Shown: positions 11,974 through 45,451 of the stretch, one piece after another | How the letters are laid out: every line of letters starts with the position of its first letter | How positions within the stretch are numbered: the first letter of the stretch is position 1 | From: Candidatus Pelagibacter sp. TMED166 | Lineage (GTDB): Bacteria > Pseudomonadota > Alphaproteobacteria > Pelagibacterales > Pelagibacteraceae | NCBI GenBank assembly: GCA_002171015.1 | Contig: NHHP01000001.1 | Span: 4,641 to 68,640, forward strand | Direction of reading: 5' to 3' | DNA length: 64,000 nucleotides | The notes under the pieces: generated by a model | What the model was told of the DNA's origin: nothing | The model's database searches: none | What the model saw: only the letters and a program-made list of their open reading frames with translations | Program-made: the position numbers and the translations under genes

Positions 11974-12053
11974 AATGTTTAAAAAATTAAATATTAGATA
12001 TTTATTTTTAGAAAAGTTATATCAACACAACAAAAATCATTGGAGATAATAAT

Positions 12054-19209: not shown

Positions 19210-19923
19210 ATGATAAAGTTAAAAGATTTACTAATAGAAGCACCTAAGATTAAAAAAATAAAAAATGTTTCGGTTCAATATATGGATGCTGAATATGTTG
19301 GTAGTGTAGATTTCGAACCTGTCAGAAAAGCTTGGGTATATAAAAAGGATAAACCGAAAGATAATTATTTTCTAGACGTTATAACTAAAACAAAAAATAA
19401 ATATCAAATAGATTTAGGTAAACATAGAAACTCTGAAAGTGCAAAGAAATTTGCTAGTGGGTATTTGAAAAGAAAATTTACATCAATGGAATCCATTAAA
19501 GAAACAGTATCACACCGAATATTAAGACTATCTAAAGATGGTGCTTCTAAACAATTTCTTAGAGACTTCGATAGAGTGTTTAAGAAGAAGTCTAAAGAAT
19601 TAGGTTATGGTAAATTGAATAAGGACGTTCAGACTCTTAATGTTCAAGTTTCTAAACCAGCAGGTTTTGATAAACCTATTAAGTATGAAAAGATGAAAGG
19701 TATCCAAGTCAGCTATCAATTTGATGAAGGGGTAATACCAGGTAGACCATCTTACAAATATTCATTGGATGATTTCAAAAAAGATTTAAAAAAGTTCAGA
19801 GGATATAAAATAAAACAGGATTTACCAGTGATATTTACCTTAACCAAAGGTGACTTTGCGTATAGTGTAAATTACATTGGGGCTATAAGTGGTGTATTTG
19901 TAATTGGTGGCACAAGAGTATGA
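19210..19923 (+). CDS. leader-family protein 2 (MIKLKDLLIE...)
   Basis: 237-aa ORF with the conserved N-terminal leader. ATGA overlap with the next gene. Confidence 0.65.
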   Translation: MIKLKDLLIEAPKIKKIKNVSVQYMDAEYVGSVDFEPVRKAWVYKKDKPKDNYFLDVITKTKNKYQIDLGKHRNSESAKKFASGYLKRKFTSMESIKETVSHRILRLSKDGASKQFLRDFDRVFKKKSKELGYGKLNKDVQTLNVQVSKPAGFDKPIKYEKMKGIQVSYQFDEGVIPGRPSYKYSLDDFKKDLKKFRGYKIKQDLPVIFTLTKGDFAYSVNYIGAISGVFVIGGTRV

Positions 19924-23069: not shown

Positions 23070-23394
23070 GTTAAAAGAATTATTAAATCACATAAACGAA
23101 AATACAACATATCTTCCGCCAAAATACAGTAGTCCTGAGGTTAAAAGTATGATTGACAATGACATTAAAAAAATGTCAAAGATATTAGGAAAGGCTTCAC
23201 AACAAGTTATTAAAGTAATGATGGATGGTGTCAAGGGAGGAAAGTATGATGCTATGGATATTATCAGAGGTATAGAGACTGGTAACGTAAATAGAACACA
23301 CGAAGGAGAAAGACCTTTTCTGAGAATGCTGTGGAGAAAAGTTAAAAGTGGATTTAGAAGATACTCCAAAGACGGAAGGTTGAGAAAAAAATGA
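23062..23394 (+). CDS. leader-family protein 7 (MIKLKELLNH...)
   Basis: Tandem ATGs at 23059 and 23062. Conserved leader, ATGA overlap with the next gene. Confidence 0.65.
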   Translation: MIKLKELLNHINENTTYLPPKYSSPEVKSMIDNDIKKMSKILGKASQQVIKVMMDGVKGGKYDAMDIIRGIETGNVNRTHEGERPFLRMLWRKVKSGFRRYSKDGRLRKK

Positions 23395-23759
23395 TTAAAT
23401 TGAAAACCCTTTTAGAGAGAGTTGATTATCACTATGAAGCTTCGGAACTCGTTAAGCGTTATGGATTACGGTCTAAGGTTAAAATCGGTACTGGTAAAAA
23501 CTTCGGTGAATATATACCAGAGACTGATACAATTACTATCAGGCCATCTTATCCAAATCTTAAAGAATTCTACATGACTGTTTTACACGAAATAGGACAC
23601 GCATTGGATGCTAAAAGATTAGGACTAAGAAAATATTTAAAGAAATATGTTCAGGCTGGTACGATGGCAACCTACCGTGGTTTAGACCCACATGATGATA
23701 ATAAGTGGGAAGAAAAAGCCGAAAGGTTTGCTAAAAAAGAATTAAAAAGATGGTTGTAG
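23391..23759 (+). CDS. leader-family protein 8 with HExxH zinc-metallopeptidase motif
   Basis: 122 aa, MIKLKTLLE... leader. ...TITIRPSYPNLKEFYMTVLHEIGHALDAKR has the strand-helix-HExxH layout of minimal zincins (ImmA/IrrE- or SprT-like). Confidence 0.55.
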   Translation: MIKLKTLLERVDYHYEASELVKRYGLRSKVKIGTGKNFGEYIPETDTITIRPSYPNLKEFYMTVLHEIGHALDAKRLGLRKYLKKYVQAGTMATYRGLDPHDDNKWEEKAERFAKKELKRWL

Positions 23760-31600: not shown

Positions 31601-34600
31601 GACTTAACGCTAATAATTTATTTATAAGTTCAAGTGAAGGTGGTATAATATCAGCTGGTAATCCTAGACCAACCGATATAGACGGAACCAATAAAGGTTT
31701 CTTCGTCAATGGTAGTACTGGTAAAGTGTTATTAGGTAATTCCAATGGTAGTCATATAAAATTTGATGGGACTAATACGAGTATTTCGTCATCGGCTTTC
31801 TTCCTAGGTTCGGAAGCTCAATTCGTAAGTGGTTCGAATGGTAATATAGAAATAAGTTCTAGTAATTTCCATCTCACAAATGCTGGTGATGTTACGATGG
31901 CTGGAACTATTACCGCGACCGCTGGTCAATTGGGTGGATTCGGAATCAGCAGTGACGCGATATCATCTGATAATTTCTTTATAAGTGGTGGAGCTGAGAA
32001 TAATGAATTCTTTATCTCATCATCAGCGTTCAACGTAAAAGCTAGTGGAAATGTTACAGCTTCAGCATTACAACTTAGTGGTGGTAGTGCAGGTGGATTG
32101 GTCGTAAGTGCTGGACAAATCGGTGTCGGTGAAATTCTGAAACTAAAGGATAGTGGACAGATAACAGGTTCGTCGGTTTTATTCACAGGTGGTAAGATAG
32201 CTTCATTTGATATAACAGATAATGTATTGAGTAACTCCCCAAACTTTTTTATAAGTGGTTCAGCGACAGGTAATAATTTTTTCATATCATCATCTAATTT
32301 CAACGTTAAGGCAAGTGGTGATGTATCAGCTTCAGCTATTCTATTAGGTGATAAAAGTGGTGGTCAATTTTTACAATTCGCGGGTGATACATTAACCGTA
32401 CAAGGTAATATATCTGCTGATAGTATATCGACCCCATCAGCAGCGGCTACACCTAGCTCGTCTTTATCATCAGATGGTCTGTTGAAAACAGTATCGGCTT
32501 CAATCGGTGGTTTTGAAATTGATGACCACAGTATACGAACAAGCGGTATAGAATTCAATAACTCAACACAACCTATATTCATAAGCTCAAGTGCTTTTAA
32601 AGTAGACCATAGTGGAAATGTCACTGCTAGTAATGTTGATTTAAGTGGTAAGATAACGGCAACTAGTGGAGAAATCGGTGGATTTAATATCGATAGTGAT
32701 GAAATAAAAAGTGGAACAAATATTAGTTTGAATTCAAACAACAAATCATTATCGATAAACAATAGTACGTTTGGAAATACCGGTATACAATTACAGTTCA
32801 ATAGTGGTACACCAAGAATGTTCGTTGGACAACAATTAGGTGAGTTCTTCAAGTTCGATGGAACTAATGTAGAAGTCAGCTCATCAAAATTTTTCTTCGG
32901 TAACAATACTAATTTTATAAGTGGTTCGTTGGGTAACATCAGTATACAGAGCAGTGGAGTTACCACCTTAAGTGGAAGTCAAGTCACAATACAAACACCA
33001 AAATTTTTCTTTGGTGGAGACTCACAATTCATAAGTGGTTCTAATGGCAATATAGAAATAAGTTCTAGTAAGTTTCATATCCAACCAGATGGTGATGTCA
33101 TCACAAACGATATTACCGCATCAAACGCAAACGTTAGTGGTAAGATAACCGCTACTTCTGGTGAAATCGGTGGATTCACGATAGGTGATGATTTATCAAA
33201 TAGTGCTGGTAGTACATTGAAACTCAAAGGTAGTACCGGTCAGATTACAGCCTCGGCAGCAAACATAACTGGTGATATTACTGCCGATACAATCACAGCT
33301 AATACAGCTGGGACTATTGCTAACTTCGAAATTAGTTCTACGGAAATAAAATCATCGAACAACCTTTTAAGATTGAAGTCAAATGGACAGATTACAGGTT
33401 CATCAGCACAAATCGCAGGTAACATTACTGCCACAAGTGGTCAAATAGCTGGATTTACAATTAGTGGTAATGAGTTGACCGCAACTAATTTTACTTTAGA
33501 CGCGAGTGGTAAATCGATATCACTTGGAACTGGTAATACAATTTTTATAGCGGATGCTGATGAAGGTATACAACTAGGACATGCCTCTTTCAATAGTGCT
33601 CCGTTTAGTGTAACTAAGGCTGGAGAGTTGAAAGCAACATCAGGCACTATTGGTGGTTGGAGTTTAAGTGCAAACACAATAGTAGGTGCTAATCTAACTT
33701 TAAATTCAAGTGGTCTGATAGAAACAAATGATTTCGCAAGTGGAGTCAAAGGTTTCAGATTAGATTCTACCAACAACGGACAAGCCGAGTTCGAGAATAT
33801 ATCGATTCGTGGTACTTTGAAAACAACAGTATTCGAAAAAGAAACTGTAAACGCTGTTGGTGGTCAGTTATATGTTGCGAACTCTACAACACTTACTGGT
33901 TCTTTAGCCATATCCGCTAGTGCAGCTACGATGAGTGTCGTCAATGTTACCGGTTTTACAGGTAGTTATGCGAATGATGGTGAAATACTAGTTGCTAAAA
34001 AAATAACCGACACAGGTTTTTCAACAGAATATATTTTAGTACAAAGTGCGTCACGAGATAATCCGTCAAGTGATACCGATTTCTCTGGTAAACTATTCGT
34101 TGTCAGAGGATATCAAAGTGGTAGTAGTGGGGACTTCCTAGGTGATAACGCTAATTTGTCTCAATCATTGGCACCTGGTCAGGTATTGGCTTCAACTGGT
34201 AGGATAGGAACAGGTTATATCAGATTAAATGCTAATCCAAATGATACCACAACACCATTTATAGATATTGTTGAAAGAACTGGTAGTGGTGTATTCGATG
34301 TAGATTTAAAAGCTAGACTCGGTGATTTGAGTGGGTTGAGTACAACGAAGTTACATGGAACCGACCCAGCAAACGCTGGTTTCGGACTCTACAGTCAAAA
34401 TGTTTTTCTCGAAGGTGGGATAGTTGCCAACACAGGTTCTATCGGTGGTATAGAAATGGAAGCTGGTAAACTATACAACGGAGTTGGTGTACACGGAAAT
34501 TCTAATACAGGTTTTTATGTCGATAGTTCCAGTAAATTTAGTTTGGGTGATAAGTTGGTTTGGGATGGAAGTGATTTATCTGTCGAAGGTTCAATAACCC

Positions 34601-37600
34601 TAACAGGTGGGACTGGAGTAGCCACCCCATCGGATGTATCCGCGAGTTTGAATGCATCATCGAGTGCACTACAGGATAACATAGATAACGTTGAATCCAA
34701 TGTATCAGGTGCTTTTACAGAAACATCAGCGTCTATCGCTACAGATTTAAATACAGTTGAATCCAACATATCGGGTGCTTTCACAGAGGTATCAGCTTCG
34801 ATAGTCCAAAACATAGTAACCGATATAAGTGGTTCGATACTAGATATTCCACCGGCACCTGGTGGTGAGGGTTTATTTTTAAACTTCCCACACATGGGAT
34901 ACTTTAGTGGTAGTGAATTTACAGCTTTCATATCAGCAAGTGGTGGTTTCCTATTCAAAGCTGATGACAACAATCTGATATCTTTTGGACAGACTGTAAC
35001 AGGTGGAGACGGAATAGATAGTAAATCGTTTGTTCTTAAATCAGATAACGTATTCCTAAGTGGTTCAAAGGTAAACATTCTAGGAGAAAGATTTTTCTTG
35101 GGTGGTCAGTCACAATTTGTTAGTGGTTCGAACGGAAATATTGAAATAAGTTCATCTAGGTTTCATGTGAAACCCGATGGTGATATAGTGGTTCAGAAGG
35201 TTACGGCTACAGAGGGTAGTATCGGTGGTTATACAATAGATGGTCATAGTATATCTACCACCGGTGTTGAAATTAACGATTCCACACAACCAATATTTAT
35301 AAGTTCAAGTGCTTTTAAAGTTGACCATGTAGGTAATGTCACGGCTAGTAACGTGGACTTATCAGGTAAGATTACTTCAACGGAAGGTAGTATCGGTGGA
35401 TTCGATATAGGCTCATCTCAGATATCGAGTTCAACCGGTGGATTGATTTTAAACTCAGATGGTGGTATCACGGGCTCTAAGTTTTTATTAGAAGGCGGTA
35501 TCATTACCGATAGTGTAACGATAGAAGGGTCGTTATCAGCTAACTCAATATCTACACCGACAGGTGGTTCACCCTTGGCTCAGATAACCGACCAAGGTTT
35601 CGCTAAGTTCGTATCAGCGTCGATTGGTGGATTCGATATATCACAAACTGAAATCAAGGATACAGACGAAGACTTAATTTTAAAATCAAGTGGACAAATC
35701 ACTGCATCTGCAGCACAGATAACTGGTGAACTCAACATTACCGGTGGTGCCACCAAAACCCAATTGGATGTCATAGGTCAACAAACCGCATCATTGGATG
35801 CTAGTGTATCCGCGATAGGAGCAACGACCGCATCATTGAACACAGCGACTGGATCACTCCAATCAGATATCGATACAGGTCTGGCATCAGTCAGTTCATC
35901 GGTATCAGGTGCTTTTACCGAAGCTTCAGCTTCGTTGGCAACAAATCTTAACACCGTAGAAGCCAATGTATCGGGTGCTTTTACTGAGGTATCTGCTTCC
36001 ATTGTTGAAAAAATTGTAACGGATTCAACCGGTTCAATTTTAGAAGTCCCACCATCACCAGCGGGAAGTGGATTGTATTTAAATTTTCCACACATGGGAT
36101 TCTACGATGGAGCGGAACCAGCAAGTACGACATATATCGTTACAGCACCGGGTGGTTCGGGTGGTGGATTCTACATAGATGGTGTTCAGAGAGCAACATT
36201 AGAATTACAAGTAGGATACACCTATAGATTTAATACCTCTGCTGTTGAGGGTTCTCATCCGTTTAGATTTTCAACAGATTCTGATAATGATAATGCTTAT
36301 ACAACTGGTGTTACGGTTGGTAGTGGATACGTAGATATAGTGGTTACTTCAAGCACACCATCAACTCTATATTATTATTGTACGGCACATGATGGTATGG
36401 GTGGACAGATAAATGTCGTGGATAACTCAGAGTATAAAGCTTTTATATCAGCATCTGGTGGATTTCTATTCAAAGCTGATAACAATAATCTGATATCCTT
36501 TGGTCAATCCGTAGATGGTGGGGATGGAACTTCAACGAAATCATTCGTGCTTCGGTCTGATAATGTTTTCCTAAGTGGTTCTAATGTAAATATTTTAGGG
36601 GAGAGGTTTTTCCTCGGTGGACAGGCACAATTCATTAGTGGGTCGAATGGTAACCTAGAAATTACCTCAAGTAACTTTCATCTAGACAGAGATGGTAATG
36701 TCACATTGGATGGAACTATAACGGCTACAACCGGTGAAATCGGTGGATTTAGTATATCTTCAAACTCCATATCAAGTTCGAATGATATTTTACAATTAAA
36801 ATCAAGTGGTCAGATTACCGCATCAGCAATACAACTTACTGGTGAGGTCAACATAACAGGTGGTTCGGCTAAATCACATTTGGAGCAAATCGGAGAATCA
36901 ACAGCATCATTGAATACGAGTGTTGTTGCAATCGGACAATCAACTTCATCCCTTGACGCGAGTGTTGTATCGATAGGTCAACAAACCGAATCTTTGGACA
37001 ATAGTGTTATTTCTATTGGTGAGAAATCCGCATCATTAGACGCAAGTGTTGTTTCCATAGGAGAATCAACAGCATCTCTAACTACTGCCTCACAATCTAT
37101 GGCGGCTAGAGCTTCATTGACTGCGACAGGTTTGGATATATTTGATAGTGGTAGTAATAGGATTGCTGAGTTTAGTGGAAATGTCACAATAGGTAAAACC
37201 GCGTTTCCAGAGAACAACGTTTTTATCGATAACGATAGTGTTGAAATCAGAAGAGGTTCACAGGTATCGGCTTCCTTTGGTTCAACGACGACGATTGGCC
37301 CAACATCCAACAAACACGTCAAAATAACAAGCGATGCATTGGAGATTAAAACCGATGCCAATACAACGGTTCTATCGGCATCTGCTGCAGGTTTGGAAAT
37401 GGTCGGTACGATTAATGCCAGTGCTGGTGATATCGGTGGATTCGGTATATCGGCGACAACAATCAGTAGTTCTAATTCAGATTTGATATTGAACTCCAAC
37501 GGACAGATAACCGCTTCAGCGGTATCGATGTCAGGTGCGATTAATGCGACTAGCGGTTTGATTGGTGGTATGAGGATTGAATCCAACAGCATAGAGAGTG

Positions 37601-40600
37601 GTGCGGATTCAGGCGATGGTTCGGTGATAACCTTGACCGTGACAGCTCAAGATAGTAATTATTTCATCATAGACGGAGTCAATCAACCAACGTTGACATT
37701 CCTACCTGGTAACACCTATAGGTTTGATTTATCGGATGATTCAACTAATGGTCATCCTTTCAGATTTGCCACATCTGGTGATGGTAGCGGTACTGTTGTG
37801 TACACCGAGGGTGTGACATCGAGTGGAACTCAAGGAGATCCTGGTGCGTATCGACAGATAGCCGTGACACAAAATACTCCAACGAATTTATTCTATAGAT
37901 GCACAAATCATAGCGGTATGGGTAATTCAATTACCGTCGATAAAACCTCTCCGTTGATACTAGATGGTAACACAGGACAGATCAGTGGTTCTAGATTTCT
38001 TTTCACGGGTGGTAAGATTAGCGGTTCTAGTGTCGAGATTGATGTTGAAAACGTTAAGATAAGCGGTAGTTCGGTAGATATCGCCACACCTAAGTTTTTC
38101 CTAGGCGGTGGTGGACAATTCATAAGCGGTAGTAATCAAAACATTGAGATTAGCTCTAGTAACTTTCATCTACAACCCGATGGTGATGTTGTGATGAGCG
38201 GTACTGTCACGGCAACAACAGGTGAGTTAGGTGGTTTCGCGATAACACCGACTGCAATATCTGAATCCAACAACCGTTTAATATTAAGGTCGGATGGTAG
38301 GATTACGGCTTCGTTCATGCAAATGACCGGTGAAGTAAACATAGTCGGTGGTTCTGCTAAAACTCATTTAGAATTAATCGGTGAACAGACCGCGTCGTTG
38401 AATACGAGCGTGGTTTCGATTGGAGCTCAAACTGCATCTCTTGACACAAGTGTTGTATCGATAGGAGCACAGACTGCGTCATTAGATGCTAGTGTAGTTT
38501 CAATCGGTGAGAAATCCGCATCGTTGGATACTAGTGTCGTATCGATAGGAGCACAGACTGCATCATTAGATGCGAGTGTTGTTTCGATAGGGGCACAAAC
38601 AGCGTCATTGGACACGAGTGTGGTTTCAATAGGTGCGACTACGGCTTCGATACAAACCGTAACCGCTTCTCTACAGGTAGCTTCAGCGTCAATGGCGTCA
38701 ACCGCGGCATTGACAGCGACTGGTCTAGACATTTTCGATAGCGGTAGTAACAGAATTGCACAATTTAGTGGTAACGTTACGATAGGTAAGACAAGTTTTC
38801 CTGAAAATAATGTTTTTATCGATGAAGATTCTGTGGAGATACGTAGAGGTTCTCAGGTATCGGCGTCGTTTGGAAGCACAACAACCATAGGCCCAACCAC
38901 GGATAAGCATGTAAAAATTACATCAGATGCTTTGGAGATTAAAACAGATTCCGATACAACTGTTTTATCAGCATCCGCAGCTGGTCTGGAGATGGAGGGT
39001 ACGGTTAGAGCAACTGCAGGTGAAATTGGTGGATTCACAATAAATTCTACAGAGATAAGTGCTAGTGGATTACTGTTAAAATCAAGTGGACAGATAACAG
39101 GTTCAGCTGCTAATCTTAGTGGTAGCTCGGTTGATATAAGAACACCGAAGTTTTTCTTAGGTGGCAGTGGACAATTTGTAAGTGGTTCAAATGGAAACAT
39201 TGAAATAAGTTCATCTAAGTTTCATGTGAAACCAGATGGTGATATTGTGGTTAGAAAGGTTAATGCTGATGATGGTACAATCGGAGGTTTTAAAATTGCA
39301 AATACATTTTTAACATCAAGTGCAGGTAGTGGTTTTGGTATTTTAATTGCAGAGCCAGATACAAATCCAACAAATGATTTCAATATAGATGAAGATGGAG
39401 CATTGGGTATATCATTTGGTCTACATCGAAGACCTAATGGTACAACCTATACTTTAAATACATCAAATATGGATTTAGACAATGCTACTAATTATCCAAA
39501 TTTATGGGTAATGGGTTCTGCTACTGATAATGAAAACATAATATTTAGAGTTGGAAAATCAGGTGGTGAGGGTATCAGATTTGAAAACGAAAAGATTGAA
39601 GTAAGTTCTTCAGCATTTTTACTTGGTGATAAGAATAGTAATTTCGTAAGTGGTAGTAATGGTAACATAGAGATAAGTTCATCTAAGTTTCATGTGAAAC
39701 CAGATGGTGATATAGTAGTTAGAAAAGTAGATGCTGTTGAAGGTTCTATATCAGGATTTTCAGTTGAAAATAATAAATTACTAGGTCGTACAGTTTCGGA
39801 TTTTAGTGGTACGGTTATAACATCTTCTGTTTTATTTACACCTGATGTTGAAAATACTGGAGGACTAGGAGGCATACCAGCAATAGGCATAACTGCAATG
39901 AGTGGTTCGGTAATGGGAGCTGGGTTTAGTGTATTATGTAAACCAAACGATGACGAGCTTGGTGTTGACTTTAGAATTGGCCAAGCAACAGGTGAAGGAA
40001 TAGCTACTGGAACAGGTGGATTAAGAATTGTAGCTGTACAGAAAGAAGATGGTTCGGATGATTTTGGTTACTCGGTAAACGGTCAAAGTTTTACAGATTT
40101 CACCTCAGGTTCATCTTTTAATTTTGGCGGTGCAGGAAATGGCTTGAGTTATGGTCTCACCGGTAATAGATTCAAATACCTAATGGGTAAGAGCAGTGGT
40201 GCTCATTTAAAATTTGATTCTGCTGTAAATGAATTATGGATTAGTTCTTCGTATCAAAATATGGAAACTGATATAGGTAAGACAGTAATTTATGGAAATT
40301 CAGTATCTGCTTCAAGAAGTACAGCGATAAGTGACCTAAACTCATACACTACAAGTTCGTTAAGTCATCTTCATCTTGATGGGTTAACATTCAATACCGC
40401 AACTAGTGTTCGTTCAGCACTTCTAGGAGCTGCAGATGGAGAACAACATTCAATAACATTTAACAGACTGTTATATTTTGAGAGTACTCAAGGTGGTGAA
40501 AGCATGCGCCTTAGTCGTAATAGTGAAGTTGTTATTGCAGGTGCATTATCTAAGGGTTCTGGTACATTTAGAATATCACATCCAGATCCTAAAAAGAATG

Positions 40601-40941
40601 AAAAGTATTATTTACAACATTCGTTTGTAGAGTCGCCAACTCGTGGAGATAATATTTATAGATGGCAAATAGATGTTAAGGAAAAACGACACACAATTAA
40701 ATTACCTGATTATTATAAACATTTAAATGAGAATGATATGGTTTGGATAAATGCAGTAAAACATTTTGGTAAGGCTTATGGTGAAGTAAATGTAGAACAA
40801 ACAGAACTAACAATACATACCGATACTGATGGATTATACAATGTTCTATTGATTGGAACACGAAAAGATGAGGTAGCAACAAAAGCATTTGCAGGTGTAG
40901 AACCATCAAAATCTTATATAAAAGAATTAGAGGAGAAATAA
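28687..40941 (+). CDS. giant repetitive tail-fibre-like virion protein (4084 aa)
   Basis: One uninterrupted ORF. It has at least 9 copies of a 45-50-aa module, FFLGG.QF(V/I)SGSNGNIEISSS.FH..PDGD....(I/V)TAT.G.IGGF.I. It also has 14-aa coiled-coil-like repeat arrays, two about 105-aa cupredoxin-like inserts, and a non-repetitive C-terminal domain (about 40480-40938). Confidence 0.85.
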   Translation: MGFLPKRLTLQNLDQVSVFIEDTDNQYFNVQHLPETLSQGRHAFKLFGSNLLREGIELKMELLDSEGNTIFMTPVDFIGEETPPHTPYRYVTIEVYSPPINYPGIATLTILGELNPNLVDVPIEFQNAYNVRYQVDIDVDLSTIVNTQPIRFFKNPTTEFQEVVQAKTVLSPISESIVKTTANGLTRSDLKGSVIEIQSGSLEKEALPNSVSDTFKDIRRFKDEFKYKTGLRGKVPSIIKRRGLSRRFASLEQPKFKIKTSAATFRSDMQGGTVEIGKHDVKIFTVDSITGQTKEKVVTVPRFKTKILEVLDDKTIIPEEPPIVFLPTGSQPSNTDIQEATIEDFSSAPITASFSAADSSPSQSIVNFDSLLDLTIKDMRTFSGDIYRIRVHGKSEAAGSDFTVLTDVIVESPELLKDVDSPSGVLRTGYFINQSHINTYLNKFSMDGTTKGTNVISNYNSSNIIDAINISGSNLGLNQSVVVETKIGQSFTIRKDVTYTLSAKVKGQIKDKVLDDSGTVSRKGKLYFHLSGSNINDSSLVTSHNRFGFELRDEATGEPVVLQLDEDIDGIQNFETIEHTFKPKFNLDRTVNTDTVLQLRAESGEWFISDLSLRPAMDTGFSPDEFDLKVPIPRSIRPDRFDFLIEYFDINNNVAETVTVLQDVPISGSALVIDGDGNLLTGSLFLGNAVDSGIEAAGVNSAFVRSVGYEGFESASLGGKGGFMIFSGSVLPDAPDNYVGAGIEIHDGTTGVDESFLKFRTNPSQFDVKTSTFFLGKKLNPANFISGSNGNLQISSSNFELTADGDVTMSGEISATGGAIGGFDIGSSTISTTGVVLGDSSEDLFISSSAFKVDHSGNITASNIDLGGTISATSGDVGGFQINAGSLTSGTGDSAITMSSADKLISIGSGSTFNKGDLRGGFRAGIDTDGVFKFAIGNSDSFIHVDNDGVSIKTEDINVTASLLNIDVDIFRLNANNLFISSSEGGIISAGNPRPTDIDGTNKGFFVNGSTGKVLLGNSNGSHIKFDGTNTSISSSAFFLGSEAQFVSGSNGNIEISSSNFHLTNAGDVTMAGTITATAGQLGGFGISSDAISSDNFFISGGAENNEFFISSSAFNVKASGNVTASALQLSGGSAGGLVVSAGQIGVGEILKLKDSGQITGSSVLFTGGKIASFDITDNVLSNSPNFFISGSATGNNFFISSSNFNVKASGDVSASAILLGDKSGGQFLQFAGDTLTVQGNISADSISTPSAAATPSSSLSSDGLLKTVSASIGGFEIDDHSIRTSGIEFNNSTQPIFISSSAFKVDHSGNVTASNVDLSGKITATSGEIGGFNIDSDEIKSGTNISLNSNNKSLSINNSTFGNTGIQLQFNSGTPRMFVGQQLGEFFKFDGTNVEVSSSKFFFGNNTNFISGSLGNISIQSSGVTTLSGSQVTIQTPKFFFGGDSQFISGSNGNIEISSSKFHIQPDGDVITNDITASNANVSGKITATSGEIGGFTIGDDLSNSAGSTLKLKGSTGQITASAANITGDITADTITANTAGTIANFEISSTEIKSSNNLLRLKSNGQITGSSAQIAGNITATSGQIAGFTISGNELTATNFTLDASGKSISLGTGNTIFIADADEGIQLGHASFNSAPFSVTKAGELKATSGTIGGWSLSANTIVGANLTLNSSGLIETNDFASGVKGFRLDSTNNGQAEFENISIRGTLKTTVFEKETVNAVGGQLYVANSTTLTGSLAISASAATMSVVNVTGFTGSYANDGEILVAKKITDTGFSTEYILVQSASRDNPSSDTDFSGKLFVVRGYQSGSSGDFLGDNANLSQSLAPGQVLASTGRIGTGYIRLNANPNDTTTPFIDIVERTGSGVFDVDLKARLGDLSGLSTTKLHGTDPANAGFGLYSQNVFLEGGIVANTGSIGGIEMEAGKLYNGVGVHGNSNTGFYVDSSSKFSLGDKLVWDGSDLSVEGSITLTGGTGVATPSDVSASLNASSSALQDNIDNVESNVSGAFTETSASIATDLNTVESNISGAFTEVSASIVQNIVTDISGSILDIPPAPGGEGLFLNFPHMGYFSGSEFTAFISASGGFLFKADDNNLISFGQTVTGGDGIDSKSFVLKSDNVFLSGSKVNILGERFFLGGQSQFVSGSNGNIEISSSRFHVKPDGDIVVQKVTATEGSIGGYTIDGHSISTTGVEINDSTQPIFISSSAFKVDHVGNVTASNVDLSGKITSTEGSIGGFDIGSSQISSSTGGLILNSDGGITGSKFLLEGGIITDSVTIEGSLSANSISTPTGGSPLAQITDQGFAKFVSASIGGFDISQTEIKDTDEDLILKSSGQITASAAQITGELNITGGATKTQLDVIGQQTASLDASVSAIGATTASLNTATGSLQSDIDTGLASVSSSVSGAFTEASASLATNLNTVEANVSGAFTEVSASIVEKIVTDSTGSILEVPPSPAGSGLYLNFPHMGFYDGAEPASTTYIVTAPGGSGGGFYIDGVQRATLELQVGYTYRFNTSAVEGSHPFRFSTDSDNDNAYTTGVTVGSGYVDIVVTSSTPSTLYYYCTAHDGMGGQINVVDNSEYKAFISASGGFLFKADNNNLISFGQSVDGGDGTSTKSFVLRSDNVFLSGSNVNILGERFFLGGQAQFISGSNGNLEITSSNFHLDRDGNVTLDGTITATTGEIGGFSISSNSISSSNDILQLKSSGQITASAIQLTGEVNITGGSAKSHLEQIGESTASLNTSVVAIGQSTSSLDASVVSIGQQTESLDNSVISIGEKSASLDASVVSIGESTASLTTASQSMAARASLTATGLDIFDSGSNRIAEFSGNVTIGKTAFPENNVFIDNDSVEIRRGSQVSASFGSTTTIGPTSNKHVKITSDALEIKTDANTTVLSASAAGLEMVGTINASAGDIGGFGISATTISSSNSDLILNSNGQITASAVSMSGAINATSGLIGGMRIESNSIESGADSGDGSVITLTVTAQDSNYFIIDGVNQPTLTFLPGNTYRFDLSDDSTNGHPFRFATSGDGSGTVVYTEGVTSSGTQGDPGAYRQIAVTQNTPTNLFYRCTNHSGMGNSITVDKTSPLILDGNTGQISGSRFLFTGGKISGSSVEIDVENVKISGSSVDIATPKFFLGGGGQFISGSNQNIEISSSNFHLQPDGDVVMSGTVTATTGELGGFAITPTAISESNNRLILRSDGRITASFMQMTGEVNIVGGSAKTHLELIGEQTASLNTSVVSIGAQTASLDTSVVSIGAQTASLDASVVSIGEKSASLDTSVVSIGAQTASLDASVVSIGAQTASLDTSVVSIGATTASIQTVTASLQVASASMASTAALTATGLDIFDSGSNRIAQFSGNVTIGKTSFPENNVFIDEDSVEIRRGSQVSASFGSTTTIGPTTDKHVKITSDALEIKTDSDTTVLSASAAGLEMEGTVRATAGEIGGFTINSTEISASGLLLKSSGQITGSAANLSGSSVDIRTPKFFLGGSGQFVSGSNGNIEISSSKFHVKPDGDIVVRKVNADDGTIGGFKIANTFLTSSAGSGFGILIAEPDTNPTNDFNIDEDGALGISFGLHRRPNGTTYTLNTSNMDLDNATNYPNLWVMGSATDNENIIFRVGKSGGEGIRFENEKIEVSSSAFLLGDKNSNFVSGSNGNIEISSSKFHVKPDGDIVVRKVDAVEGSISGFSVENNKLLGRTVSDFSGTVITSSVLFTPDVENTGGLGGIPAIGITAMSGSVMGAGFSVLCKPNDDELGVDFRIGQATGEGIATGTGGLRIVAVQKEDGSDDFGYSVNGQSFTDFTSGSSFNFGGAGNGLSYGLTGNRFKYLMGKSSGAHLKFDSAVNELWISSSYQNMETDIGKTVIYGNSVSASRSTAISDLNSYTTSSLSHLHLDGLTFNTATSVRSALLGAADGEQHSITFNRLLYFESTQGGESMRLSRNSEVVIAGALSKGSGTFRISHPDPKKNEKYYLQHSFVESPTRGDNIYRWQIDVKEKRHTIKLPDYYKHLNENDMVWINAVKHFGKAYGEVNVEQTELTIHTDTDGLYNVLLIGTRKDEVATKAFAGVEPSKSYIKELEEK
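36112..36426 (+). other. cupredoxin-like domain 1 inside the giant fibre (aa 2476-2580)
   Basis: ...GYTYRFNTSAVEGSHPFRFST...LYYYCTAHDGMGGQINV. His2524, Cys2565, His2568 and Met2571 sit in the H...C-x2-H-x2-M spacing of type-1 copper sites (amicyanin-type short loop). Confidence 0.6.
36895..37104 (+). repeat. in-frame 42-nt (14-aa) tandem repeat, 4 full + 1 degenerate unit
   Basis: ESTASLNTSVVAIG / QSTSSLDASVVSIG / QQTESLDNSVISIG / EKSASLDASVVSIG / ESTASLTTASQSMA. Confidence 0.85.
37624..37941 (+). other. cupredoxin-like domain 2 inside the giant fibre (aa 2980-3085)
   Basis: ...GNTYRFDLSDDSTNGHPFRFAT...LFYRCTNHSGMGNSITV, with His3023, Cys3072, His3075, Met3078. Confidence 0.6.
38383..38676 (+). 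repeat. in-frame 42-nt (14-aa) tandem repeat, 6 full + 1 degenerate unit
   Basis: (E/A)QTASL(N/D)(T/A)SVVSIG repeated six times, with one EKSASLDTSVVSIG variant, then ATTASIQTVTASLQ. Confidence 0.9.
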
Positions 40942-40942
40942 A

Positions 40943-41425
40943 ATGTTAAAAGAATTTAACGATATAATAGAAATAACCCTACATCACGAGGGTGGATATG
41001 TAAATGACCCGAATGATTTAGGCGGAGAAACCAATTTTGGTATCGCTAAACGTTTCTATCCCGACGTAGATATAAAAAATTTAACGAAAGATAAAGCAAA
41101 AGATATTTATAGAAGAGATTATTGGGATAAAAACAAAGTCGATGAGATGCCTGAACAGTTGAGACATATATATTTCGATATGTGTGTAAATCAAGGCAAA
41201 GGAACCGCAGTAAAAGTTTTACAAAGAGCTTGTAATTCCAAGAAAGCAGACCTCAAGGTCGATGGTGGGTTGGGCCCTAAAACATTAGGGGCTATCAAAG
41301 AATTCAATCCATCGCTACCAAGGGTTCGTTGCTATAGATTGAAACATTACTATGATTTGGTGAATAGGAAACCAGAACAAGAAAAGTTCTTATTCGGATG
41401 GTATCGTAGAACAATGGAAGTATAA
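40943..41425 (+). CDS. GH108-family lysozyme (endolysin or virion lysin) with peptidoglycan-binding C-terminus
   Basis: ITLHHEGGYVNDPNDLGGETNFGI matches the GH108 N-terminal signature (EGGY..D..D.GG.T..GI). VDGGLGPKTLGAIKEF matches the PG-binding helical motif (DG..GP.T..A). Confidence 0.8.
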   Translation: MLKEFNDIIEITLHHEGGYVNDPNDLGGETNFGIAKRFYPDVDIKNLTKDKAKDIYRRDYWDKNKVDEMPEQLRHIYFDMCVNQGKGTAVKVLQRACNSKKADLKVDGGLGPKTLGAIKEFNPSLPRVRCYRLKHYYDLVNRKPEQEKFLFGWYRRTMEV

Positions 41426-44400
41426 ATGAATAAATTGACCGAATGGTTGACAAAACCATTTTTAGAAAAAGATATTATCAAAGAGGGTGTCAGAGATCCT
41501 GGTATCTTCAAAGCTATATTTTTAGCTGGAGGACCTGGTAGCGGTAAATCATTCGTAGCACAGAAGTTATTCGGTATACCAGAGAAGATAAATGTATCGA
41601 AGACTGGTCTGAAGATGGTAAATCAAGATAACGAACTTGAACTTTTGTTAAAAAAGTATTTTGGTACAACTGATATTGACAATATGCCTGATGAGTTATT
41701 TCAAGATTTGACTGGTGTGGATAAACAAGGTAAACCCGTAGATTACGACACGAGTGGATTAAGAAAGTTTGCTAAATCTTTAAGTAAAGAAAGATTAAGA
41801 CTTTACACCAATGGAAAGTTAGGTGTTATCATAGATGGTACTGGACATAACTTTGGTAAGATTAAAAAAAGAAGAAAAGAATTGATGGATTTAGGATACG
41901 ATACCTATATGGTTTTTGTAAATACCTCATTAAAGATTGCTAGAGAAAGAAATGAAAAAAGAGATAGGGTCGTACCAGACGCTATTGTTAAAAAAAGTTG
42001 GGAAGATGTACAATCAAATTTAGGTGCCTTTCAAGGTTTATTCGGTGGTTCTAACTTTATGATTGTTCAGAATAACAAGATGTTATCAGATGCTCAGATA
42101 AAGAAACATTTTAAGATGTTGGTCAGTAAAGGTATAGATTCATTTTTAAAGAAACCAATTAAGAGTAAGGTTGGTAAAGCTTGGTTACGAAGAGAAAAGA
42201 AACATCAAAAGGTATTTAAAGATCCTGGCCAGTCAAAGTTTTTTGAATCTATAAATATTCCGATAAAAGTAGGTGATACAATCCTTACCGGTAGATTTAA
42301 AAACAAAAAAGTTGTTGTAAAATCAATCGGAAAAGACGACCACGGTATGCCCACAATAAATGGAAAAAAGATAACAACAATTCGTACGATGAAAAACGTT
42401 GATGAGGCACCTAGGGTTCCTAGAAAGAAAGGACAACATCGTGGTTCAAAGTCTCATTCAGATTTATATACGGATGAGAATCCAAAAGGAACAATCAAAG
42501 GATTGAAGTTTGCTACGGTTAAAGATGCAAAAGCATCAGTCAGTAAAATAAATGGAAGTGGTAAAACTCACGCACATAAGATACAAGCAGCTGTAGCTAT
42601 GGAACAGAGAGCTAAAGAAATGGGTAAAGCTTCTCAAGCGGCTGTATATAGAACTTATATCAATAAGATGAAAAAGAAAACAAAAGAGAAAAATGAAGAA
42701 TTTGGATTACCTGCTGGTGAGATACCATCACCAAGTCGTAAGATGGTAAAGAAGATGAAGAAACGTGGTAACACATCGGTTCCCTACGGTAGTGGTTACA
42801 AGAAAGTAAATGAAAATGATAAAGCTGAGTTATACAAATTGTATAGTATGGGTATGAAAGCATTTTCTGGTAGTGCTAAACATAAAGAAATACTAAAGAA
42901 GATAAAAGTTCTAAGAAAAAAATTAGGTATGAATGAACAAAAAGAAATCAAAAAAACTATCGGTATATTCGGTGGTAGATTCCAACCGTTTCATAGTGGA
43001 CATTTAGCCACATATAAATGGTTATCTAAACAAGTGGATGAAGCTTATATAACAACTTCTAATATTAAACAACTTCCAAGACACCCAATGGACTTCAAGG
43101 AAAAAGTCCGTCACATGGTAAAGATGGGTATTCCAAAGAATCGTATTGTTCAAGAAAGAACACCTTATGTAGCAGACAAAGTTTTAAAGAAATTTAATCC
43201 TAATACCACTGCTGTAGTTTATGCTTTTGGACAAAAAGATGCTGGTAGATTAAAAGGTGGTAAGGGTAAATACTTTCAAGATTATAAAAAAAGTAGAGAG
43301 GATATCCGAGGATACAAAGAACATGGATATTTTATCACTGCACCACAATTTGGTGACATGAGTGGTACTAAGATGAGGTCACTATTGGGTGACCCTAGGA
43401 TAGATGATAAAGAAAGAAGAAAATCTTTCAAAAAAGTTTTCGGATATTTCGACCAAGGTATCTATAATATGATGACCAATAAATTCAGAAAGTTATACGA
43501 GGGTATAGAGGACTTTATACTCAAAACAGATTTTAAAGAATTAGTCAACGAAGCAAGTTTAACAGCGATAAACCCAACAGATGATGGCCCACCAACTTTC
43601 TACAGAGGTTTCAATGATTATAAGAATCAATCCAAAAGATGGTTGGATGATATGTACGGTGATACTGGTTGGGAAGTCGTACAATATATTTTAGGAAAAC
43701 ATGCTATAAATCCTGATTATGATTACACCCTTAAATACAACGTAGTTCCTGCTGTAGCTTATGGTCGTAAACAATCTGGTAAATATGGTACTAGATTTGG
43801 TACAGACAATCCAATAAAATCCTATAAAAATTATATAGAAGGAACTGTATTGCATAATATTGGGTATGAGTTGGTAAAATGGATGGGTATTACACCAGAT
43901 GGTAATAATTATACTGGTGTAGAGGTGGAGACTCCAGTGGTACCAGGTATCGGTGATGATAATGTTGGTAATACAGAAAAACAAAAATTAAAACTAAAAG
44001 AGATAAATTTAAATGAAGAAGTAGAAATATTGATTGGGGAAAGGAAAAAACTTTTACCGTCAAGAGACCACAAATATGTTTCGATTGGTTTCGGTAGGTA
44101 TAAATTAAAAGGTAAGGAAAACGAAGACGACGCCGATGTATATTTCAAATCAAAAGATGGAACTTATATAAAATCAAATGACCAAAAAAGTGATAATAAA
44201 AATTTTAAAGAAGGTGTATTACTAGAGGGTGGAGCTTACGGACATTTGAACCATCCTTTTGATGACAAAAATCTTACATTTTCAGATTTTAAAACACTAA
44301 TTATTAATACCCTACAAGGTAAATTAGACAAAGAGGGTGCAGTCACAGAAAAAACAGATGGTCAGAACATAATGATAAGTTGGAAGAACAATAAACTTAT

Positions 44401-45451
44401 CGCCGCTAGAAATAAAGGTCATATAAAAAATCATGGGGCAAACGCACCAGACATTAGTGGTATTCAATCGATGTTTGCTGGTCGTGGAGATATTGAAAAA
44501 GCATTCGTATTTGCAATGAGGGATTTACAAAAGGCCATCGGTAAACTTAGTGATAAACAAAAGGACAAGATATTTGACGAAGGAAAAAAATTCATGTCTT
44601 TAGAAGTAATATATCCAAAGACCGTTAACGTAATACCTTATGATAAATCGTTATTACAATTTCATGGAACGATTGAATACGATACCGACGGTTCTCCGAT
44701 AGGTGAGGATAGGGGTAGTGCACGGATGTTAGCCGGTATGATAAAACAAATAAATCAAGATATACAGAAAGCGTTTAAAATAGAAAAACCATTTATCTCG
44801 AAGTTACCACAAGTAAAGGATTTTAGTAGAAGACAGAAATACTTTTTAGGTAAATTGAATAGATTACAAAAACAATTTGCATTGAGAGGTACGGATACTC
44901 TAGCTGATTATCATCAAGCTTATTGGACTGAATTTATTTTCAACGCTGCTAAACAATACAAATACAACATACCGAACAACGTCTTGGGTAAGTTGACTAA
45001 AAGATGGGCGTTTTTAGATAAATCATATAGAATACCAGATATCAGACGTGAGATACCGAATAAGAATTTTTTGAATTGGGTTCTGAGAACCGACAAAACA
45101 GATTTACAAGGTCTACAAAAAAAACATATTAGGGATTGGGAAGTTTTGTTTTTTGAACTAGGTGCTGAGATATTATCAAACTTATCTGATTTTATCGCGG
45201 CTAATCCAGATAAATCTGCTCAAAAAATTAGAAAAGATTTATCAAAAGCAATAAGTAAAGTGAAGACTTCGAAAGACCCAAAAGTTATCAACACCTTGAA
45301 AACACAGTTGGATAGGTTGAAAGCAATAGGTGGTTTGAAAGCTGTTGTCCCTACTGAGGGAATCACGTTTGTTTTCAAAGGAAAATTGTATAAATATACT
45401 GGTGCTTTCGCACCAGCTAATCAAATTTTAGGAATGTTAAAGTTCGTATAG
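41426..45451 (+). CDS. 1341-aa multidomain protein: P-loop kinase + HxGH (NMNAT/cytidylyltransferase-type) nucleotidyltransferase + KxDG ligase-like domain
   Basis: Walker A GGPGSGKS (41528-41551), with VIIDGTG and RNEKRDRVVP downstream. GIFGGRFQPFHSGH (42962-43003) and MSGTKMR (43358-43378) fit the HxGH / (S/T)xxxxR pair of NMNAT-like enzymes. EKTDGQN (44348-44368, K976) fits motif I of ATP-dependent RNA/DNA ligases. Confidence 0.6.
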   Translation: MNKLTEWLTKPFLEKDIIKEGVRDPGIFKAIFLAGGPGSGKSFVAQKLFGIPEKINVSKTGLKMVNQDNELELLLKKYFGTTDIDNMPDELFQDLTGVDKQGKPVDYDTSGLRKFAKSLSKERLRLYTNGKLGVIIDGTGHNFGKIKKRRKELMDLGYDTYMVFVNTSLKIARERNEKRDRVVPDAIVKKSWEDVQSNLGAFQGLFGGSNFMIVQNNKMLSDAQIKKHFKMLVSKGIDSFLKKPIKSKVGKAWLRREKKHQKVFKDPGQSKFFESINIPIKVGDTILTGRFKNKKVVVKSIGKDDHGMPTINGKKITTIRTMKNVDEAPRVPRKKGQHRGSKSHSDLYTDENPKGTIKGLKFATVKDAKASVSKINGSGKTHAHKIQAAVAMEQRAKEMGKASQAAVYRTYINKMKKKTKEKNEEFGLPAGEIPSPSRKMVKKMKKRGNTSVPYGSGYKKVNENDKAELYKLYSMGMKAFSGSAKHKEILKKIKVLRKKLGMNEQKEIKKTIGIFGGRFQPFHSGHLATYKWLSKQVDEAYITTSNIKQLPRHPMDFKEKVRHMVKMGIPKNRIVQERTPYVADKVLKKFNPNTTAVVYAFGQKDAGRLKGGKGKYFQDYKKSREDIRGYKEHGYFITAPQFGDMSGTKMRSLLGDPRIDDKERRKSFKKVFGYFDQGIYNMMTNKFRKLYEGIEDFILKTDFKELVNEASLTAINPTDDGPPTFYRGFNDYKNQSKRWLDDMYGDTGWEVVQYILGKHAINPDYDYTLKYNVVPAVAYGRKQSGKYGTRFGTDNPIKSYKNYIEGTVLHNIGYELVKWMGITPDGNNYTGVEVETPVVPGIGDDNVGNTEKQKLKLKEINLNEEVEILIGERKKLLPSRDHKYVSIGFGRYKLKGKENEDDADVYFKSKDGTYIKSNDQKSDNKNFKEGVLLEGGAYGHLNHPFDDKNLTFSDFKTLIINTLQGKLDKEGAVTEKTDGQNIMISWKNNKLIAARNKGHIKNHGANAPDISGIQSMFAGRGDIEKAFVFAMRDLQKAIGKLSDKQKDKIFDEGKKFMSLEVIYPKTVNVIPYDKSLLQFHGTIEYDTDGSPIGEDRGSARMLAGMIKQINQDIQKAFKIEKPFISKLPQVKDFSRRQKYFLGKLNRLQKQFALRGTDTLADYHQAYWTEFIFNAAKQYKYNIPNNVLGKLTKRWAFLDKSYRIPDIRREIPNKNFLNWVLRTDKTDLQGLQKKHIRDWEVLFFELGAEILSNLSDFIAANPDKSAQKIRKDLSKAISKVKTSKDPKVINTLKTQLDRLKAIGGLKAVVPTEGITFVFKGKLYKYTGAFAPANQILGMLKFV

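Follow-up and report, generated by a model that had tools for sequence, protein, structure and literature searches.

What is a protein of 1341 residues, with a kinase at one end and a domain that has no Pfam or PHROG model at the other, doing in the late structural block of a marine phage? The protein is encoded on contig NHHP01000001.1, which is filed under Candidatus Pelagibacter sp. TMED166; the stretch of 64,000 nucleotides analysed here (64 kb, hereafter the window) belongs to a marine T4-like myovirus. A preliminary description of the gene had listed four sets of motifs, those of a P-loop kinase, of a module recurring in viral proteins, of an HxGH nucleotidyltransferase and of a KxDG ligase-like domain, and had left the choice between two functions, an RNA-repair enzyme that heals and seals ends with an extra nucleotidyltransferase, and an NAD-salvage module fused to a ligase. 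Indexing of the translation placed all four motif sets at the residues quoted, including EKTDGQN at 975-981 with K976. We are highly confident that the domains of the chain are as described below and in Table 1. On balance we favour the first function, that of a single-chain phage enzyme for the repair of RNA, tRNA in particular, which would both heal and seal the broken ends.

A predicted ligase fold in the C-terminal domain

The last part of the chain (residues 928-1341) was modelled with AlphaFold2. A first model, of residues 700-1341 on a shallow alignment, had a predicted local distance difference test score (pLDDT) of 60 and matched Rnl1 at E ~0.08; it was replaced by a model of the domain only, built on a 36-sequence alignment (A5) that reaches down to 41% identity, with pLDDT 91.4 and pTM 0.86. 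A Foldseek search of this segment, which the preliminary description had proposed, retrieved RNA ligases. The top match in the Protein Data Bank (PDB) is the fungal tRNA ligase Trl1-LIG with RNA (8rbj, E 4.7e-3, probability 0.95), followed by Rnl3 of Palaeococcus/Pyrococcus, T4 Rnl1, a putative ligase of Aquifex, Naegleria Rnl5 (NgrRnl) and T4 Rnl2, with DNA ligases and capping enzymes lower down. With the predicted structure as query, RNA or putative DNA ligases make up 19 of the 20 top PDB matches. In BFVD, members of the family itself, named 'cytidyltransferase-like domain-containing protein', come first and many viral 'RNA ligase' entries follow (E 4e-4 to 1e-2).

Are the motifs of a ligase in place as well? 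Putative counterparts of the ligase motifs, from I and Ia through III and IIIa to IV and V, occur in canonical order on successive strands of the model, with one helix and no oligonucleotide-binding (OB) domain after motif V. K976 is the predicted nucleotidyl-accepting lysine, and xKxDG is present in 139 of the 147 best family representatives, the set on which all counts of domain content below are based; residue conservation (Table 1) refers to a threshold of >=90% across 148 sequences. In motif IV, E384 and G385 (A5 numbering) are invariant in A5, and a motif specific to the family, GGAYGHxxHPFD, stands about 30 residues upstream of motif I. An hhalign alignment that is not significant (E ~0.2-0.3) puts K976 on K99 of T4 Rnl1, NKG on SKG (K119; FKSKGS) and E1060 on E159. 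When the helical insert is excised it extends through motifs IV and V, with EG on E227/G228 of Rnl1 and K1323 on K240 (EGYV...FKIK), and is still not significant.

Independent evidence comes from an intein. In the relative P0157 a mini-intein (residues 740-878; Pfam Intein_splicing, E 1.1e-10) lies exactly inside motif I (...QEK/CIDGD...LVHN/TDGQN...), and because it was inserted exactly there, EK-TDGQ is indicated as a critical site. The N-terminus of another relative, P0251, is the C-terminal remnant of an intein at the same point (EK/TDGQ).

Taken on the model, a ligase fold is very probable. The call rests on the predicted structure, the motif order and the context, not on sequence profiles: the KxDG ligase-like domain that had been proposed is borne out by Foldseek, motifs and context, but Pfam, hmmsearch against PDB sequences and hhalign all failed to recover it. 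Matches to the ribosomal protein eS6 were discarded as compositional, arising from Lys-rich helices. Neither Pfam (2025 copy) nor PHROGs has a model for the domain, and UniProt names cover the cytidyltransferase-like part only. No description of the domain was found in the literature, although one may exist in the RNA-repair survey of Burroughs & Aravind (2016).

Fusions and neighbouring genes in the family

How large is the family, and what are the partners of the ligase-fold domain? A search with residues 700-1341 returned more than 2900 proteins, nearly all of them marine metagenomic, whose last ~410 residues are up to 86% identical. A profile search (E<=1e-3) gave at least 2146 clusters at 50% identity, with the C-terminal domain nearly always at the C-terminus. 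It stands either alone, in proteins of 410 residues, or fused to others. The NMNAT-like nucleotidyltransferase (NMNAT, nicotinamide mononucleotide adenylyltransferase) is found in 99 representatives (about two thirds), the module of residues 268-325 in 49, the middle domain (701-860) in 23, the kinase in 7 and the module of residues 326-415 in 4. Pfam searches were made with the 34 longest members; CTP_transf_like was found in 26 of them, DUF5661 in 8, PolyA_pol with an RNA-binding domain, that is, a CCA-adding enzyme (best E 1.6e-64), in 5, HD in 4 and AAA_33/Zeta in 4. One relative of 1930 residues, P0247, carries the nucleotidyltransferase, DUF5661, an AAA_33 kinase, HD, a CCA-adding enzyme and the ligase-fold domain in one chain.

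The fusion of kinase, nucleotidyltransferase and C-terminal domain is not an assembly artefact or chimera, since chains built alike, of 1068-1270 residues, occur on independent metagenomic contigs (P0011, P0114, P0121 and P0122). The preliminary description did not recognise the architecture as a described one; this holds for the exact chain, while its core of nucleotidyltransferase and C-terminal domain is abundant in databases as 'cytidyltransferase-like'.

The separate genes can also be seen side by side. In a locus of about 9 kb (L013), genes for an Acb1/2H phosphoesterase, a CCA-adding enzyme with HD, an AAA_33 kinase, the family protein P0117 and an HD_4 protein are found together, and the kinase gene lies directly upstream of that of P0117, its end overlapping the start of the latter. 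The separate kinase is 53% identical to residues 16-258 of the window protein (E 3e-90) and P0117 is 45% identical to residues 509-1340; therefore the window protein is a fusion of neighbouring genes. Another locus (L004) has a separate kinase gene together with an HD-nucleotidyltransferase-ligase fusion. Kinase, cyclic-phosphate/phosphate esterase, CCA-adding enzyme and ligase form the standard kit against tRNA cut by ribotoxins (review PMC7824862). Judged from the genes that can be recognised, the fusion and gene context points to RNA repair.

The family is, by these searches, restricted to phages, very large and essentially one of uncultured marine phages. A scan of 185,579 bacterial and archaeal species, one genome each, found 5 loci, all on short contigs of metagenome-assembled genomes; the apparent absence from cellular genomes is of limited sensitivity, because the scan (alignment A2) used two peptide patterns only. 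Close homologues were found in 3 of 50,697 phage records, namely Microcystis phage Mel-JY01, whose nucleotidyltransferase-ligase-fold gene is at 11243..13162, and two huge-phage assemblies. Among the annotated genes of Mel-JY01 is also one for ribosomal protein S21. In the cyanophage literature 'cytidylyltransferase' genes have been handled as metabolic genes of unknown function (PMC9146016).

Could the ligase work on DNA? The C-terminal domain would then be a phage DNA ligase which, with the 5'-kinase, processes ends and seals nicks in place of a ligase of the T4 gp30 type, which many marine T4-like phages would lack. Such a role would fit the ATP-dependent DNA ligases and the putative Aquifex DNA ligase among the Foldseek matches, the fact that gp30 is among the quasi-core genes missing from some marine T4-like cyanophages (PMC2993671), and the gene content of Mel-JY01, which has a family gene but, over 5-169 kb, no DNA ligase among its annotations; moreover, kinase and ligase suit DNA repair too. 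However, the best structural matches are RNA ligases that lack an OB domain, as does the model after motif V, and among the fusions and neighbours are CCA-adding enzymes, whose substrate is specifically tRNA. As to position, the gene is part of the late structural block and stands apart from the replication module, whose primase and SbcC-like genes are at 24-28 kb of the window. Cultured T4-like phages seldom carry a close homologue, as the count of records given above indicates. A DNA ligase is thus an improbable answer.

The kinase and the nucleotidyltransferase

The N-terminal domain (residues 16-258) is certainly a P-loop phosphotransferase. Assigned earlier to the Pnk/zeta/AAA_33 type, it matches both AAA_33 (E 4.7e-8, 33.9 bits, cutoff 27) and Zeta_toxin (E 1.2e-6, 28.6 bits, cutoff 22.3) above the Pfam cutoffs. 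Among PHROGs it matches phrog_12810 (E 1.7e-37, annotated without function), an 'ATPase' family and, over residues 120-200, phrog_505 'polynucleotide kinase' (E 2.7e-5). Its motifs are the Walker A sequence GGPGSGKS at 35-42 (K41), VIIDGTG at 134-140 (D137) and RNEKRDRVVP at 175-184, together with D68 in VNQDNE, a candidate catalytic residue, and the lid R175-N-x-x-R179. Homologues keep the P-loop, D68, the IIDGTG segment and R175-N-x-x-R179. We take K15, D35, D85 and R122-N-x-x-R126 of T4 Pnk to be the counterparts of K41, D68, D137 and R175-N-x-x-R179, and we infer that the acceptor may be a polynucleotide 5'-OH.

The domain of residues 506-700 belongs to the HIGH superfamily, with GIFGGRFQPFHSGH at 513-526, which includes GRFQPFHSGH at 517-526 (H523-S-G-H526), and with MSGTKMR at 645-651 (SGTKMR, 646-651). 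A further motif, GQKDAGRL at 602-609, is specific to the clade, in which G.KDA.RL is invariant. The domain scores above the cutoff of Pfam CTP_transf_like (PF01467; E 1.4e-9, 35-38.6 bits, cutoff 21) and narrowly above that of TIGR00125 (28.6 bits against 27.7); phrog_395 'cytidyltransferase' matches it at E 9e-9, and NCBIfam and PHROG give weak NMNAT matches. A profile made from 21 family sequences (A7) was searched against PDB sequences. The best match was the M. jannaschii NMNAT (1f9a, E 5.5e-8), then that of M. thermautotrophicus, followed by NadM of Francisella and Synechocystis (2qjt is NadM) and then by NaMNAT and PPAT; the alignment with NMNATs spans GRFQPFHxGH, the ensuing 'SPFNFxEK' loop and the SGTxxR motif. 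On the other hand, every equivalog model for NMNAT, NadR or NadM gave a score of 16-26 bits, below cutoffs of 127-409 (NF002243, 26.5 against 127; TIGR01527, 23 against 181; NadR NF005988, 23.6 against 201; NadM NF003786, 17.3 against 397), and HxGH is replaced by xxHH (e.g. GPHH) in 35 of 98 family nucleotidyltransferases. The label 'NMNAT-type' given in the preliminary description therefore fits as a name for the nearest known relative, and the substrate may be other than NMN, given the scores below cutoff, the xxHH variants and the clade's own G.KDA.RL motif.

Do the two domains then regenerate NAD+? An enzyme of the NadR/NadM type could counter NAD-depleting defences, with the kinase acting on nicotinamide riboside, the HxGH domain on NMN, and the ligase-like domain either separate in function or using the NAD+. 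NMNATs are the nearest solved relatives of the nucleotidyltransferase (1f9a and the NadM structure 2qjt), the weak NCBIfam and PHROG matches agree with this, NadR likewise pairs an NMNAT with a P-loop kinase, and NAD+ salvage by phages is established (PMC9503650). But the similarity to NMNATs is limited to the HxGH segment and the SGTxxR motif, the equivalog scores and the xxHH variants speak against the assignment, and the kinase is of the AAA_33/Zeta and Pnk PHROG type, unlike that of NadR. It accompanies the nucleotidyltransferase in only 7 of the 147 representatives and adjoins HD and CCA domains in P0247. A Nampt/NadV or Nudix partner was not seen in any neighbourhood examined. NAD salvage, the second of the two functions first considered, is thus weakly supported, and we consider it unlikely.

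A proposed model of RNA repair

How would a single chain repair RNA? The kinase, through K41, D68 and R175/R179, would phosphorylate the 5'-OH. The 3' end would be healed by a module of the chain that is not recognised as such or by another enzyme, for which fused HD domains or neighbouring 2H and HD genes of the relatives are candidates. The C-terminal domain would nucleotidylate itself on K976, pass the nucleotide to the 5'-phosphate and then seal the break. The RNA is probably held by the helical subdomain that precedes motif IV, a task carried out in T4 Rnl1 by the helical domain at the C-terminus. No other domain is joined to the ligase domain as often as the NMNAT-like one, which therefore probably has a part in this pathway too. 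It may form a pyrophosphate-linked adenylate, in the form of NAD+, of a dinucleotide related to it or of an adenylylated phosphate end. Speculatively, it could synthesise NAD+ or regenerate it on site as AMP donor of the ligase, supply NAD+ to a 2'-phosphotransferase of the Tpt1 type after Trl1-like sealing, or adenylylate the phosphate end of the RNA directly.

Heal-and-seal repair by a divergent, rearranged RNA-ligase clade with an NMNAT-like partner is the best reading that we can offer, and a somewhat better than even one. It corresponds to the first of the two functions originally put forward, which the ligase fold, the HD and CCA fusions and the kinase, 2H, CCA and HD neighbours make the better supported.

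A number of observations weigh against it. The C-terminal ~410 residues have no match in Pfam (E<=10), NCBIfam, PHROGs or PADLOC; phmmer and hmmsearch against PDB sequences with three queries gave no ligase match to the domain; and hhalign was not significant, neither against T4 Rnl1 alone nor against the Rnl1 family profile (probability 0.2%, E 0.27), nor is there a Pfam RNA_lig_T4_1 match (E<=10). The Foldseek E-values are modest (>=4.7e-3) and the TM-scores low (0.2-0.35), and a single conserved lysine (K1323) stands at motif V where KxK is usual. A BLAST comparison of the kinase with T4 Pnk aligned the P-loop only, and a polynucleotide specificity is weakly backed, by the phrog_505 match and the resemblance of motifs. 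No 3'-end-healing domain is recognisable in the chain by Pfam, PHROG and NCBIfam searches, a point that the preliminary description had missed; these searches gave no match to a HAD 3'-phosphatase (DxDxT) or any other phosphoesterase. We know of no RNA-repair pathway that needs a HIGH nucleotidyltransferase, yet it is to such an enzyme that the ligase domain is most often fused. In the 64-kb window ARAGORN detected neither tRNA nor tmRNA genes, and no other repair genes were found there. An 'AAA domain protein' - 'RNA ligase' - tRNA-Leu cluster stands at 66200..68632 of the Mel-JY01 record (L015), and as this phage carries both, the family gene and an annotated canonical RNA ligase are not simple substitutes. 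Lastly, Acb1 is an anti-CBASS family; the Acb1-like 2H phosphoesterase gene of L013 (4016..4546), clustered with those of the CCA-adding enzyme, the kinase and the family protein, could serve RNA end healing or the degradation of cyclic nucleotides, the latter being the anti-CBASS option.

Is the C-terminal domain a nucleotidyltransferase at all? The KxDG and EG...K motifs and the fold matches might be coincidental, and the domain for example an RNA-binding scaffold; the failed profile searches, the low TM-scores and the one motif V lysine would agree with that. It would then be hard to see why ligases dominate the top matches in two independent structure libraries (PDB and BFVD), why five motifs stand in canonical order on predicted strands, and why there are an intein at motif I and a fusion and genomic context of RNA repair. 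This explanation is very unlikely. Because the TM-scores are low, we regard the domain as a divergent relative of the ligases that falls in no named clade.

Comparison with known repair systems

The likeness to T4 lies in the combination of a putative phage 5'-kinase with the predicted fold of an ATP-dependent RNA ligase that lacks an OB domain and has an accessory domain made up of helices only; Foldseek lists T4 Rnl1 among its top matches, and the register of the motifs comes from alignments that are not significant. The differences are considerable. The Pfam families of Rnl1 (PF09511 and PF20819) do not include the window protein, which has no RNA_lig_T4_1 match, and the kinase has no HAD phosphatase partner as in Pnkp. 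The topology also differs, since the helical domain of Rnl1 follows motif V, whereas that of the window protein, as modelled, precedes motifs IV and V. Finally, all parts are joined in a single polypeptide, to which a HIGH nucleotidyltransferase and three modules without assigned fold are added, and its gene stands in the late structural block.

Fungal and plant Trl1 (Rnl6 clade), which gave the best structural match, likewise joins a ligase and a P-loop kinase in a single heal-and-seal polypeptide. The order is reversed, however: Trl1 reads LIG-KIN-CPD, while here the kinase is N-terminal and the ligase C-terminal. The window chain also has no match to a 2H cyclic phosphodiesterase and no sequence similarity to Trl1. 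Bacterial Pnkp-Hen1 and Pnkp1-Rnl-Hen1 (PMC4411300) deploy kinase, phosphoesterase and ligase against ribotoxin damage, with Hen1 modifying the repaired junction. The extra nucleotidyltransferase could have an added role comparable to that of Hen1; unlike those systems, the chain has no methyltransferase or metallophosphoesterase, its extra enzyme is of the HIGH superfamily, and the family is restricted to phages.

With NadR and NadM the chain shares the GRFQPFHxGH and SGTxxR motifs and the closest solved structures, and with NadR a P-loop kinase too. It differs in scores far below the equivalog cutoffs, in the kinase family, in the fusion to a ligase fold, in having neither Nudix nor HTH, and in the His motif, which is shifted in a third of the family. 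Like the polyvalent proteins of Iyer et al. (2017), it has several unrelated enzymatic domains in one polypeptide, relatives with shuffled domains and a place beside virion genes. Unlike them, it has none of the hub domains MPTase, ArdC-N and MuF in Pfam searches, and its activities resemble the successive stages of a single pathway more than a set of disparate functions. In sum, the chain is probably a phage RNA-repair system on a divergent, rearranged ligase clade, in an exact architecture not previously described.

Genomic setting and further features

Table 1. Features of the 1341-residue protein and neighbouring reading frames in the window
Feature	Residues	Position in window	Strand	Basis or remarks
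Whole gene		41426..45451	+	Uninterrupted open reading frame, ATG start, 1341 codons, 1341-residue multidomain protein
P-loop kinase domain	16-258	41471..42199	+	Pfam, PHROG, homologue comparison
Small, probably beta-rich module (IPIKVGDTILTGRFKNKKVVVKSIG...INGKK)	268-325	42227..42400	+	Family comparison
Conserved module (SDLYTDENPKGTIKGLKF...GKTHAHKIQAAVAMEQRA)	326-415	42401..42670	+	Recurs in phage hypothetical proteins
Lys-rich linker	416-505	42671..42940	+	No family match; 9/147 representatives
HIGH-superfamily (HxGH) NMNAT-like nucleotidyltransferase	506-700	42941..43525	+	Pfam, NCBIfam, PDB profile, PHROG
Middle domain (DDGPPTFY...VPAVAYG...)	701-860	43526..44005	+	Kept in 23/147 representatives and P0117
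Lineage-specific insertion/linker	861-927	44006..44206	+	Absent from P0117 (pairwise alignment); pLDDT <50
Predicted ligase-fold (covalent nucleotidyltransferase-like) domain	928-1341	44207..45448	+	AlphaFold2 model, Foldseek, family
Family-specific motif GGAYGHLNHPFDD	935-947	44228..44266	+	G935, G936, G939, H940, H943 >=90% conserved
Motif I EKTDGQN	975-981	44348..44368	+	E975, K976, D978, G979 >=90% conserved
Motif Ia-like AARNKG		44402..44419	+	A994, R995, N996 >=90% conserved
Motif III SLEVIYP (E1060) and motif IIIa-like LQFHG (F1079/H1080)		44597..44668	+	>=90% conserved; beta strands in model
All-helical subdomain, ~175 residues	~1133-1306	44822..45343	+	Helices 206-379 of model, between motif IIIa region and motif IV
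Motif IV/V hairpin EGITFVFKGKLYKYTG		45356..45403	+	E1311, G1312, K1323, T1325, G1326 >=90% conserved; two strands in model
Upstream endolysin gene		40943..41425	+	Pfam Glyco_hydro_108 E 1.7e-27 and PG_binding_3; phrog_315
Giant 4084-residue open reading frame		28687..40941	+	Context; upstream of endolysin gene
217-residue open reading frame		17985..18635	+	Pfam cNMP_binding E 7e-14, POPDC1-3 E 2e-14
122-residue open reading frame		23391..23759	+	Weak Pfam MPTase-PolyVal match, E 1.6e-4, below cutoff

The long open reading frames of the window are all on the + strand, in the order gp25-like baseplate wedge, primase with SbcC-like nuclease, the 4084-residue frame, endolysin and the gene studied here, after which come two small frames, the large terminase (TerL) and the portal. 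As had been noted, the gene follows the lysin gene directly: its ATG abuts the TAA stop (41423-41425) of the latter, with GGAAG 7-11 nucleotides upstream. The homologous gene of locus L006 is preceded by the same lysin. In related contigs a giant frame, an optional lysin or separate kinase gene, the homologous gene and 2-3 small frames are followed by TerL, a T4-type portal and an S77 prohead protease. Giant upstream frames of 3200-4084 residues were found in the window and in L004, L005 and L006, the syntenic ones of L004 and L006 having 3200-3600 residues. The 4084-residue frame has no Pfam match; its sole relative in the phage database is in the huge-phage record LR756508, and there, too, a nucleotidyltransferase-ligase homologue follows closely downstream. 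The idea that it is an N4-like virion RNA polymerase was dropped, as there is no Pfam match and the syntenic homologue in L006 weakly matches Peptidase_S74, a tail-fibre chaperone.

Does the protein then serve the virion? The family gene lies within a block upstream of the TerL and portal genes in every locus examined, and for this reason the protein is possibly packaged and delivered at infection. T4 gp63 is RNA ligase 1 and also catalyses tail-fibre attachment. A role in tail-fibre assembly as in gp63, or as a packaged and ejected protein like the polyvalent ones, would be compatible with a repair activity. The position of the gene, the giant frames upstream of it in the window and L004-L006 and the zincin-type features of relatives (a SprT-like match and the HEITH motif described below) suit such a role; the genes of polyvalent phage proteins typically adjoin those of the virion (PMC5512222), and a 'cytidylyltransferase' whose homology to the window protein is not shown is part of the virion proteome of cyanophage S-SZBM1 (PMC9146016). 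Yet that protein is not among the tblastn matches, no MuF, portal or MPTase domain was found in the chain, and the gp63 analogy is one of gene position only. A virion or assembly role in place of repair is highly improbable, and RNA repair is still the reading that we prefer.

Several modules lie between the enzymatic domains. That of residues 268-325, whose sequence gives the impression of an SH3-like fold, often stands directly N-terminal of the ligase-like domain; it is 61% identical to a huge-phage record and matches phrog_3574 weakly. A module at about 340-400 had been said to recur in viral proteins, and so it does: the segment 324-412 has counterparts, at 47-75% identity, within hypothetical proteins of pelagiphages and of the cyanophages P-TIM68, S-SM2 and Bellamy. 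Its motifs are SDLYTDENP at 345-353 and GKTHAHKIQAAVAMEQRA at 379-396; the module (326-415) matches phrog_727 (annotated without function) at E 4.5e-5 and has no Pfam match. DUF5661, common in relatives, was considered for its identity and rejected, as the two are not the same. In Prochlorococcus phage P-TIM68 the SDLYTDENP...GKTHAHKIQAAVAMEQRA module is within a hypothetical protein of 373 residues (L003, 2764..3885) whose gene lies between those of the major head protein and gp3, and in other cyanomyoviruses it occurs at 66-75% identity. The middle domain (701-860) has no Pfam or PHROG match and was a low-confidence region of the first model.

Some further observations concern the relatives and the window. 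P0247 has a HEITH (HExxH) motif at residues ~525-535, between its nucleotidyltransferase and DUF5661 modules, which may mark a zincin peptidase capable of processing the polyprotein; it is another relative that carries the SprT-like match. The portal of L013 (976 residues, 19526..19824 and beyond) contains an intein (Portal_T4 - Intein_splicing - Portal_T4). Terminase_6N matches fall on short gene calls of 207-284 residues in L004, L012 and L013; the one in L013 has directly upstream of it a gene that matches NUMOD3 weakly. In the window, the 217-residue protein with a cyclic-nucleotide-binding match could bind or sequester signalling nucleotides of the host. MPTase-PolyVal, to which the 122-residue frame shows its weak match, is a zincin-like metallopeptidase of polyvalent proteins.

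Implications for marine phages

What would follow for the biology of these phages? A stronger proposal, which is tentative and in our view rather doubtful, is that the C-terminal domain is the first of a seventh RNA-ligase clade beyond Rnl1-Rnl6, one that is rearranged, restricted to phages, abundant in ocean viromes and functionally coupled to a HIGH adenylyltransferase that performs a step absent from known RNA repair. That step might be the making or regeneration of the ligase cofactor on site, for example NAD+ from NMN, or the direct adenylylation of an RNA phosphate. In the case of an NAD+ cofactor this would be the first NAD+-linked RNA ligase. If the ligase prediction as such holds, it would bring a ligase clade of unusual domain topology and a possible new reagent for RNA work. 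The multidomain relatives, which string together kinase, HD, CCA-adding enzyme, nucleotidyltransferase and ligase, are natural experiments for dissecting the pathway. Why is an NMNAT-like enzyme placed beside a ligase? The answer could link NAD+ metabolism and RNA repair in the conflict between phage and host. Should the ligase prediction hold, a very large unannotated family of marine phage proteins would be RNA ligases, and counter-defence by RNA repair would be common in the phages of the ocean.

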